A stretch of 24,304 bases of DNA from IMG/VR virus record IMGVR_UViG_642979322_000003. One strand, given 5' to 3'. Origin of the DNA: a virus (Duplodnaviria > Heunggongvirae > Uroviricota > Caudoviricetes). Below, in pieces: positions 15,001 through 18,000 of this stretch. The first letter of the stretch is position 1, and each line of letters opens with the position of its first letter. The position numbers are program-made.

Positions 15001-18000
15001 TTATGCGTTCAGATATTGTTTGCTTGTTCATGTTTTGATTTTAAAACACAGATGGTTTTGTTTCTTGACTTTCTTTGGTTTTGATTATTAAACTTTTGGC
15101 GTTCAGTTTTATGGAGCGACTCATGAAAAAATCAGAAGTATTAGGCTATTTTGGCGGAGTTGTTAAAACAGCCGCCGCTCTAGGAACGTCAAAAACCACA
15201 GTCAGCATGTGGGGGGAAGACGTTCCGTGGAAATGGGCGTTGCTAATTCAGGCAGTCACTGCCGGGGCGCTCAAATATGAGTTACACATACCGACGGTTG
15301 TCATTCCCGATTCTGATCATAATCCGCCTTCTAACCAAGGGGGGATTCATGAAAATCAAGCATGAACACATCCGCATGGCGATGAATGCCTGGGCGCGTC
15401 CTGATGGCGAAAAAGTTCCGGCAGCTGGAATAACCCAGGCTTATTTTGAGTTGGGTATGACGTTTCCTGAACTGTACGACGACAGCCATCCGGAAGCCCT
15501 GGCTCGCAATACCCAGAAAATTTTCCGCTGGATAGAGAAAGACACCCCTGATGCAGTTGAAAAAATGCAGGCTCTGTTACCGGCGATCGAAAAGGCAATG
15601 CCGCCTCTGCTGGTGGCCCGTATGCGCAGTCACAGCTCTGAATATTACCGTGAGATCGTCGAACGGAGGGATCGGCTGGTGAAAGATGTGGATGATTTTG
15701 TCGCAGCGGCGATCGCCTGGGGCACCCTGACTAACAGTGGGGGTCAGCCTGGTAATGCTGTTGTCGTGCATTGACCAACAATATTCATGCCGGATTTCTT
15801 CCGGATGTTCGAGGGTAAAGTTCGGTATCAGAAGAGGTGAGTATGGCTAATGCCTGGCTCAGATTGTGGCATGACATGCCAAATGACCCCAAGTGGCGAA
15901 CGATTGCCAGGGTATCAGGACAGCCAATCGCAACAGTGATGGCAGTGTATATCCATCTTCTGGTGAGCGCGTCACGAAATGTCACGACATGTCACGGCGT
16001 GTCACTACGTGGTCACATTGATGTCACGACGGAAGATTTAGCAAGTGCGCTTGATGTGACGGAAGACGTAATTGATTCAATTTTGCATGCAATGCAGGGG
16101 CGGGTTCTGGATGGTGACCTTATTTCCGGATGGGAAAAACGTCAGGTGCTGAAAGAGGACAATGGTAACGTTTCGCAAACGGCAAAATCCCCGGCAGAGC
16201 GCAAGAGAGCGCAGCGGGAGCGGGAAAAGCTGCGGAAACATAATGCTGATTGTCACGATGAGTCACGACGTGTCACGCATCTGTCACGACAAGTCACGAC
16301 AGATAAAGATACAGATAAAGATACAGATACAGAATTAAACCCCACACATAACGCGCGCGAGAGTATTCCGACCAGTGAGTCGAATGGTGCGCCGTTGCAG
16401 ACAGCCGAACCTGAATACCTGGACGGCCTGAGCGAACCGATCGGGAAATTTTCGATGACTACTGTCTGGCAGCCGTCGCCGGATTTTCGACAACGGGCAG
16501 CAGTGTGGGGTATGGCTCTGCCTGAGCCGGAATTTACACCTGCTGAGCTTGCCGCATTCCGGGATTACTGGATGGCGGAGGGGAAGGTTTTCACGCAGGT
16601 TCAGTGGGAGCAGAAATTTGCCCGCCACGTGCAGCACGTCAGGGCACAGGTAAAACCAGTCAGCAAGGGGGGAAGCCATGCAGCATCAGGTGGCACGGCA
16701 TCACGGGCAGTTCAGGAAATCCGGGCTGCACGCGAACAGTGGGAACGTGACAACGGATTTATCAGCAACGGAAACGGCCTGGAAGCTGTGGGAGCTCATG
16801 GGGGAGGTGTATTCGAACCGCTGGACTCAGAAGAACGGGGCCGCACCTTCGAAGCTCTGGATTGCCCAGATTGGTGCGATGACTGAACAGCAAATCCGTC
16901 TGGTGTGCCGTCAGTGCATGGACCGCTGCCGGGCGGGTGAAACGTGGCCCCCGGACCTGGCTGAGTTTGTTGCGCTGATTTCGGAGAGTGGGGCAAATCC
17001 ATTTGGTCTTACGGTGGATGCCGTGATGGAAGAGTACCGGCGCTGGCGCAATGAATCCTGGCGATACGACGGGAGTGATAAATACCCGTGGCCACAGCCT
17101 GTGCTGTACCACATCTGCCTCGAAATGCGTACCAGAGGGATTGAGCGCCAGATGACGCAAGGTGAGTTAAAACGACTTGCGGAACGGCAACTGACGAAAT
17201 GGGCAAAGCATGTTGGTAACGGGATGAGTGTTCCGCCAGTGCGACGACAACTGGAAGGGGCGAAACACCCGCAAGGGCCAACGCCAATTGAACGGCTGAA
17301 ACAGGAATACGAACGCCGGAAGGCAGCTGGTTTTATTTGAATCTGAGAAACGATTTTGTCGGAGGAAATATTAATGGAAACCGTATTTGACGCACTGAAA
17401 GCACTGAAAAAAGCCTCTTCACAGGTAGTGGCATCGCGCCTTGGAATCAGCCGCGAAGATGCTGTCAACGAACTGTGGAAACTGAAGCGCCGTGGTGAAG
17501 CGGATAACAAGGGGTCGATGTGGTGGCTGACTCAGACTGGTGAAAGTGAACCAGTGTCACCGGTACCGAAAGTGACAGCGCAAATGCTGACTGAGGCGAT
17601 TGAACATCATGGCCCACAAACGGCGGATGAGCTGGCACTGATGTTCGGGATTACCTCCCGCCGGGCGAATTCATCACTGGCCATGGCAATCAGCAAAGGG
17701 CGTCTGATTCGCGTGAATCAGGGCGGTAAATTTCGGTACTGCATACCGGGCGCTGATTTACCGGCAGAGCCGAAAGCCGCATCCATAACGGAAACGGATG
17801 GTAAAGCCTTTCCTCAGCCAGCAGGTGTTGCGTTACCAGTCGGGGAAGCGGAAACACAGGAAGAAATAAAAACGGAAAGTGTGGCGGTCACAGTGCAGTC
17901 ACAGCCGTCGTTCACCAGAAAGCATCCGGATGGTCTGATTTTACCATCGCTGCATGTGGCTAACCGCGAGCTGCGCCGGGCAAAAGGTCAGGTTCAGAAG

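Follow-up and report, generated by a model that had tools for sequence, protein, structure and literature searches.

Phased GTCACG arrays and an A-rich repeat inside a phage initiator gene: a probable replication origin of a lambdoid prophage

The virus record IMGVR_UViG_642979322_000003 (IMG/VR; Caudoviricetes) raises the question of where replication of the lambdoid prophage that it carries begins. The window, which is the whole stretch of 24,304 nucleotides (nt) analyzed here, contains a replication initiator gene in which two clusters of short direct repeats (iterons) and an A-rich repeat are embedded. Judged from its sequence, this region is probably the vegetative replication origin of the prophage, located inside the gene of its own initiator, because the layout (array, A-rich stretch, initiator and helicase loader) is that of ori-lambda and of oriL of phage SPP1. 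The features concerned are the following, with positions in the window and lengths in amino acids (aa) or base pairs (bp).

15843..16886, plus strand: replication initiator gene, 347 aa, RefSeq 'DnaT-like ssDNA-binding domain-containing protein' (ssDNA, single-stranded DNA)
15971..16028, plus strand: iteron cluster 1, six GTCAC(G) units at steps of 10, 10, 10, 11 and 11 bp
15971, 15981, 15991, 16001 (GTCACT), 16012 (GTCACA) and 16023, plus strand: GTCAC starts of cluster 1, the other four units being GTCACG
16056..16060, minus strand: inverted core copy, GTGAC on the plus strand, reading CGTCACAT on the minus strand
16191..16244, plus strand: coding region of a basic helix (aa 117-134, AERKRAQREREKLRK; helix in the AlphaFold model)
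16252..16298, plus strand: iteron cluster 2, five GTCACG units at steps of 10, 10, 11 and 10 bp
16252, 16262, 16272, 16283 and 16293, plus strand: GTCACG starts of cluster 2
16299..16340, plus strand: A-rich GATAAA/GATACA hexamer repeat, 42 bp, 74 % A+T, 71 % purine on the plus strand
16879..17340, plus strand: lambda-P-like helicase-loader gene, sharing its first 8 nt with the initiator gene

The repeat arrays are far beyond chance. An earlier note on this DNA had described about six and five repeat copies some 280 bp apart within the initiator open reading frame (ORF), and six and five units were indeed found, with 281 bp from the start of cluster 1 to the start of cluster 2. Its 10-bp periodicity held in the form of steps of 10 or 11 bp. 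Of its proposed unit TGTCACG(A/G)C, the core GTCACG was retained, and the leading T and the trailing A/G-C proved to be mere preferences. The repeats that it had placed after the iteron clusters are the A+T-rich stretch directly behind cluster 2. Its listing omitted the conserved inverted GTGAC at 16056-16060, which lies 33 bp past the final direct unit of cluster 1. Tandem Repeats Finder reported period-10 arrays at 15971-16016 and 16252-16300 and 2.9 copies of ACAGATAAAGAT at 16299-16333. The block 16300-16339 is also the G+C minimum of the gene (25 %, A-skewed, against 45-65 % elsewhere in the gene).

When the window was searched for GTCACG, 20 copies were found, nine of them within the 330 bp that hold both clusters, and the remaining 11 are close to the 9.8 that chance would give in 24 kb. 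Motif counting and spacing analysis, the check suggested in the earlier note, showed the arrays to be real: the phased pair GTCACG-N4-GTCACG (one mismatch allowed) gave six matches against 0.05 expected, all of them in the two clusters. The most frequent 6-mer reached at most seven copies (mean 3.9) in 1000 dinucleotide-preserving shuffles of the gene, compared with nine observed. In 2000 synonymous-codon shuffles that kept the protein, GTCACG occurred 1.6 times on average and six times at most. The phased-pair scan found no further array, such as a counterpart of SPP1 oriR, elsewhere in the 24-kb window, and no DnaA box (TTWTNCACA) was present within 5 kb of the arrays. DnaA boxes beside iterons are common in plasmid origins and are not obligatory. 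A promoter and terminator scan was rejected as evidence as its counts were at chance level; a minus-strand promoter-like site in cluster 2 and a terminator-like hairpin at 16340-16362 were not used.

The family of the N-terminal domain (N-domain) of the initiator comprises 905 database matches across gamma- and beta-Proteobacteria. DNA fetched from genomes (38 loci) and viral contigs (about 240 loci) yielded 112 distinct genes. The earlier note had considered that a lack of iterons in homologous replication genes would speak against its proposal. They were found at the same two places in about 105 of the 112 genes, where the commonest hexamer of the 5' half is the repeat present at both equivalent positions. 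The hexamer is GTCACG in 75 genes, CGAACG in 23 and GTAACG in seven, and both arrays of any one gene carry the identical word. In homologues, GTCAC is located at gene nt 129/139/149/160 and about 389/399/409. Hosts with GTCACG arrays include Escherichia, Shigella, Serratia, Rahnella, Pseudomonas, Bordetella, Chromobacterium, Aquitalea, Acidovorax and others. Most GTCACG-type homologues also have the inverted core at the equivalent position. Cluster 2 consists of three to five copies and is followed in nearly all subfamilies by an A-rich stretch that is GATAAAGATACAGAT-like or GATAAGAGAAGA-like. Units within arrays are spaced by 10 bp in 91 cases and by 11 bp in 29, which places successive units on one face of the helix.

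Close relatives carry 6+5, 6+4 or 4+5 iterons. The difference between six and four units in cluster 1 is an in-frame indel of 21 bp (two units). The copy number of the A-rich hexamer varies as well, and gene lengths range from 1017 to 1068 nt. This variation fits a tolerant loop and a tolerant linker in the protein.

Some homologues deserve separate mention. In the gene from Erwinia phyllosphaerae (L014), iterons spaced by 5 bp overlap one another (GTCACGTCACGTCACG; gene nt 142-185 and 412-455), and these GTCACG iterons are carried on a protein scaffold otherwise like that of the GTAACG-type genes L028 and L029, a combination at odds with strict coupling of iteron and initiator type. Since GTC-ACG and GTA-ACG both encode Val-Thr, the iteron type can be switched with little change in the protein. 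In Pseudomonas sp. JAI111 (L026; gene nt 149-230) the cluster-1 loop has grown to about 30 aa and contains three direct GTCACG and three inverted GTGAC at 9-bp spacing. From such sequences, the cluster-1 loop is evidently a hot spot for iteron gain. In two further genes, L038 from a Serratia metagenome-assembled genome (gene nt ~330-520) and L040 from Pantoea sp., a GIY-YIG-like segment (YVYxV...GIS.NPW.R) begins behind the N-domain at about aa 110. It stands in place of the basic helix and linker, and iteron arrays are not visible there. Judged by this segment, L038 and L040 may be nuclease fusions that reuse the N-domain.

Codon use was compared in 21 non-identical GTCACG-type genes (median 72 % amino acid identity) at alignment columns with at least 80 % identical residue. 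Normalized codon entropy was 0.18 at 17 iteron columns and 0.83 at 59 other columns (Mann-Whitney p = 2e-8), where the iteron columns were labelled with repeat positions already known and the sequences are phylogenetically related, both column classes lying on one tree. In cluster 1, V47 is encoded by GTC (21/21), T48 by ACG (21/21), S44 by TCA (20/21), G57 by GGT (21/21), H58 by CAC (20/20) and V61 by GTC (21/21). In cluster 2, H138 is CAC in 20/20, and the Ser and Val codons are TCA and GTC, each in 21/21. The codon of the inverted copy, V72, is GTG in 18/18, and the first D-K-D of the A-rich repeat is encoded by GAT (20/20), AAA (17/18) and GAT (17/18). Outside the iterons, those amino acids draw on all codons, as V32 illustrates (GTT 7, GTC 7, GTG 6, GTA 1).

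GTCACG is used in three frames, as GTC-ACG (VT), TCA-CGn (SR) and nGT-CAC-G (C/G-H), and the protein blocks SRNVT..RGH.DVT and CH.ESR.VT are invariant. Because a single word serves all three frames, selection on the protein cannot explain its conservation. On this codon evidence, the iterons are under selection at the DNA level. A 6-bp word would in this way fix the motifs SRNVT, RGH, DVT and CH.ESR.VT across two bacterial classes. The gene offers a clean natural case of a DNA element shaping a protein, in which 'invariant residues' read as protein function would mislead.

An AlphaFold model was built from 77 aligned sequences. It predicts a winged-helix-like N-domain (aa 1-100), the basic helix (aa 117-134), a disordered linker (aa ~135-200) and a DnaT-like domain of three helices (aa ~201-275; aa 201-275 in the model). 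The predicted local distance difference test (pLDDT) score exceeds 90 for the N-domain except in the loop of aa 44-62 (about 67-71), and it is below 50 for aa 148-200. Cluster 1 encodes this very loop (SRNVTTCHGVSLRGHIDVT), which lies between two helices of the N-domain. Cluster 2 encodes CHDESRRVTHLSRQVT of the disordered linker, and cluster 2 and the A-rich repeat together produce aa 137-165. R120, R125 and R127 of the basic helix are invariant in the family alignment. When the 75 genes of GTCACG type were compared with the 23 of CGAACG type, the only discriminating columns were iteron-coded residues and positions within or beside the basic helix, the latter being an indel at aa 114-116, R122K and Q124W. 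The idea that the specificity groups differ in the iteron-coded loop alone was rejected, as basic-helix positions differ too. The basic helix is a candidate DNA-contacting and specificity element, as these alignments suggest.

The only domain called by Pfam is the DnaT ssDNA-binding domain (PF17948; aa 205-271, E 2.9e-17, 62.6 bits against a cut-off of 25). Foldseek matched the C-terminal domain (C-domain) to 6aeq and 4ou6 with 52-59 % identity, E ~1e-5 and TM 0.86-0.93 on the target. Full-length DnaT orthology was rejected: the match to the NCBIfam model NF002770 is limited to aa 198-273 and reaches 94.5 bits, below the cut-off of 201. Residues 1-136 have no Pfam family match even at E<=10, and when the family profile was searched against the sequences of solved structures, only weak DnaT matches, for the C-domain, came up. 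The DnaD N-domain, chiefly an oligomerization scaffold, is among the best fold matches of the N-domain. No ATPase domain was found in the initiator by Pfam or in the AlphaFold model.

The earlier note had called the gene O-like, which is apt for its position and architecture; a sequence relationship to lambda O was not detectable. Homology to O was rejected, with no match to Pfam Phage_rep_O and a probability of 0.1 % when the family profile was compared with lambda O by hhalign. Homology to SPP1 G38P was likewise rejected (hhalign probability <0.1 %). Residues 1-136 have no PHROG in common with lambda O (PHROG 277 and related) or with G38P. The full-length initiator (weakly, E 5.4e-6) and lambda O both match phrog_4880 ('replisome organizer'), the initiator via an N-terminal stretch and lambda O via the C-terminal part of the profile, and the initiator has a weak full-length match to PHROG 10469 ('DnaD-like helicase loader', 3e-9). 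Both PHROG matches vanish once aa 137-178 are removed. Some relatives of the window protein are named 'phage replisome organizer' in RefSeq. Because the profile comparisons with lambda O and G38P find nothing and the N-domain shares no PHROG with them, the initiator is considered an analogue of O and not a homologue.

An origin within the initiator gene, made of iterons and an unwinding element, is a textbook principle. In ori-lambda, four 18-bp inverted-repeat iterons, each bound by an O dimer, and a 39-bp high-AT region lie within O (PMC6022878). The window resembles ori-lambda in that an array and then an A+T-rich region lie inside the initiator gene and code for the interdomain linker: the lambda iterons correspond to about aa 117-144 and the AT-rich part to about aa 145-160, and cluster 2 with the A-rich repeat to aa 137-165. 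In both, a P-type loader gene comes next and overlaps the initiator stop codon, and the order is repressor, cro, cII-like gene, initiator and loader. The window differs in having 11 direct repeats of about 10 bp (6-bp core) in two arrays plus one inverted copy. Nothing in lambda corresponds to its upstream array, which falls within the part of the gene that codes for the N-domain, and the initiator of the window shows no sequence similarity to O and has a DnaT-like C-domain. The lambda-like arrangement drawn in the earlier note was right as to arrays inside the initiator gene followed by an A+T-rich stretch; direct repeats at 10-11 bp and the presence of two arrays depart from it.

Within gene 38, SPP1 oriL combines direct repeats bound by G38P with an A-T-rich unwinding element beside them, and a second G38P-binding region, oriR, is located elsewhere in the genome (PMC5737612). 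The window shares with oriL the repeats and A-T-rich element in the organizer's own gene, an initiator without AAA+ and a loader gene that comes next. Host phylum, repeat sequences and C-domain differ, with no detectable sequence relationship, and the two arrays of the window are both in one gene, whereas oriR is distant in the SPP1 genome. The initiator family and its two-part origin of short direct repeats appear undescribed in the literature searched. With DnaT of Escherichia coli and Salmonella, the initiator shares the ssDNA-binding three-helix domain and nothing more. DnaT serves replication restart and lacks a part for origin recognition.

The two halves of the gene are found apart in other (pro)phages. 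Phage Evi and its relatives have only the 5' half of the gene in common with the window, at about 85 % DNA identity. These genes carry 4+5 iterons and the GATAAAGATACA repeat as in the window; the 3' half that comes next is unrelated, and a P gene is lacking. The ydaU/ydaV genes of Rac-SA53 share the 3' half from the GATACAGAT linker on and the P-like gene, at about 87 % DNA identity; the N-terminus of this YdaU is a DUF1376 domain, and no multi-copy iterons or GTCACG arrays were found in Rac-SA53 ydaU. The likeness to Rac YdaU/YdaV is accordingly confined to the DnaT-like half from GATACAGAT on and the P-like gene. The origin of the Rac prophage is called oriJ. Just ahead of the shared linker, Rac-SA53 ydaU (L002:2445-2477) contains a perfect 10-bp inverted repeat (TGTTCAAACA / TGTTTGAACA), which from its sequence could be the recognition site of a Rac-type origin. 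Since the Evi homology ends and the Rac-SA53 homology begins at the A-rich repeat, this repeat is seen as a recombination joint between the origin-recognition and loader-recruitment halves. The same two-part logic is known for lambdoid O genes. The A-rich hexamer repeat would thus mark the place where phages exchange these gene halves.

How such an origin might work can be outlined by analogy. From its position beside the iterons, as in ori-lambda and SPP1 oriL, the A-rich repeat is a candidate DNA-unwinding element. Rightward early transcription after derepression would supply the initiator, whose N-terminal part (winged helix and basic helix) would coat the phased GTCACG units head-to-tail on one helix face. 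Cluster 2 and the neighbouring A-rich stretch would form the core. Cluster 1 and the inverted copy would be auxiliary and would enlarge or stabilize the nucleoprotein complex, possibly by looping out the ~230 bp between. The complex would strain the supercoiled DNA until the GATAAA/GATACA stretch opens. The DnaT-like C-domain would then hold ssDNA and/or dock the P-like loader, which would bring the host DnaB. We infer initiator binding, A-rich unwinding, looping and origin activity from the features described above.

Several points weigh against an origin at this place. Phages with this domain are uncharacterized, and no description of the origin was found in the literature searched, which covered oriJ/ydaU, the 'Eru' replication types of Stx phages, iterons with DnaT and GTCACG iterons. 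The repeats lie inside the DNA that encodes the N-domain, so that joint travel of the two is automatic and is no proof that the domain binds them. Among the 112 genes, clear arrays were not seen in L025, L032, L037 and L152 or in the fusions L038 and L040. The distance between the clusters varies from 211 to 319 bp among homologues without strict helical phasing, and a common helical phase between the two clusters was rejected on these distances. In the winged helix, the segment presumed to be the recognition helix (VTEDVIDSILHAMQ) is acidic and does not differ between the iteron-specificity groups. Finally, the left arm of the prophage is degraded (truncated integrase, truncated recE and insertion sequence (IS) elements), so this copy of the origin may not be used.

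The recognition helix also bears on which part of the initiator would read the DNA. Because this helix is acidic and invariant and the discriminating columns lie elsewhere, the iterons might be read by the basic helix and/or the iteron-encoded loops (SR / VT / C-H) instead, a proposal that we put forward tentatively and hold to be unlikely. If it were true, the recognized DNA would also encode part of its reader and an iteron change would alter the reader at the same stroke, a recognition mode not described for lambda or SPP1. The same helix, acidic and constant between iteron types, favors a reader other than the initiator, either a host factor or another phage protein, with the initiator recruited indirectly, and the best fold matches of the N-domain include the DnaD N-domain, which is mainly an oligomerization scaffold. 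However, the presence of the same arrays in hosts as distant as Escherichia, Pseudomonas, Bordetella and Chromobacterium speaks against a host-specific reader. In addition, the basic helix beside cluster 2 varies with iteron type, and Evi and the window have no other conserved DNA-binding gene in common that goes with the module. We consider another reader quite improbable.

The arrays could also be regulatory sites, used for autorepression, as a roadblock in the early right operon or for copy control by array pairing, with the origin elsewhere. Plasmid iterons often also autoregulate and handcuff. Cluster 1, without lambda counterpart, is 270 bp from the A-rich stretch, and neither a DnaA box nor another site for a host factor was detected in the vicinity. 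On the other side, origins are classically laid out as an array with an adjacent A-rich stretch and initiator and loader genes (PMC6022878, PMC5737612), the 24-kb window has no other phased array, and the A-rich repeat is fixed at synonymous sites together with the iterons; we see little chance that the role is regulatory. Least probable, and in our view hardly credible, is that the repeats have no function and arose by replication slippage in DNA for a tolerant loop and linker. The arrays and the hexamer repeat are indeed all in low-confidence or disordered parts of the model, and copy number differs between relatives (four vs six units; variable hexamers). Synonymous sites are nevertheless frozen across 21 diverged genes, where neutral products would decay; one hexamer is kept in two arrays, three frames and two proteobacterial classes, and other subfamilies keep other hexamers at equivalent sites.

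A replication origin inside the initiator gene, the probable reading, would provide a testable origin for a module that is found in many E. coli genomes (at least 658 of 5426 complete ones) and in proteobacterial (pro)phages. The prophage is one of E. coli O157:H7, in whose chromosomes the initiator protein is 100 % identical, and for O157:H7 this reading would name the DNA needed intact for prophage amplification after induction.

The gene context is that of a lambdoid prophage, and the region is its early right operon. Upstream of the initiator are a divergent CI-like repressor gene (helix-turn-helix and S24 peptidase), a P22-Cro-like gene and a CII/YdaT-like gene, giving the order CI-like repressor, Cro, CII/YdaT-like, initiator and lambda-P-like loader. 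The loader gene was identified by Pfam (Phage_lambda_P, E 1.3e-15), by PHROG 109 ('P-like helicase loader') and by its RefSeq name 'replication protein P'. Window positions ~1-10000 were matched to NZ_CP033605.1 and belong to the terminal part of an adjacent prophage (gpJ, Lom, tail fibre and nleG7 effector). Remnants of ISEc8 and IS256 follow, then the truncated integrase and the truncated recE. Because of the content of positions ~1-10000, the origin-carrying prophage is regarded as degraded at its left arm and in tandem with another.

Other elements in the window are the following.

12698-12749, minus strand: DicF antisense RNA (Rfam, 75 bits), adjoining dicB
~19022-20235, minus strand: IS3-family element of the IS1203/IS629 type, with an ALIL frameshift pseudoknot at 19838-19954
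21272-21446, plus strand: sok antitoxin RNA (Rfam, 113 bits), adjoining a hok/gef gene

Some 2 kb separate the IS1203/IS629-type insertion from the replication genes upstream of it; strain TR01 lacks the insertion at this place, and other O157:H7 genomes have it. DicF and sok are usual cargo of Rac/Qin-like cryptic prophages. The ORF of the CI-like repressor (14393-15031, minus strand) encodes 212 aa in the window, and the RefSeq entry at the equivalent position in strain TR01 is only a 112-aa 'LexA family protein'.

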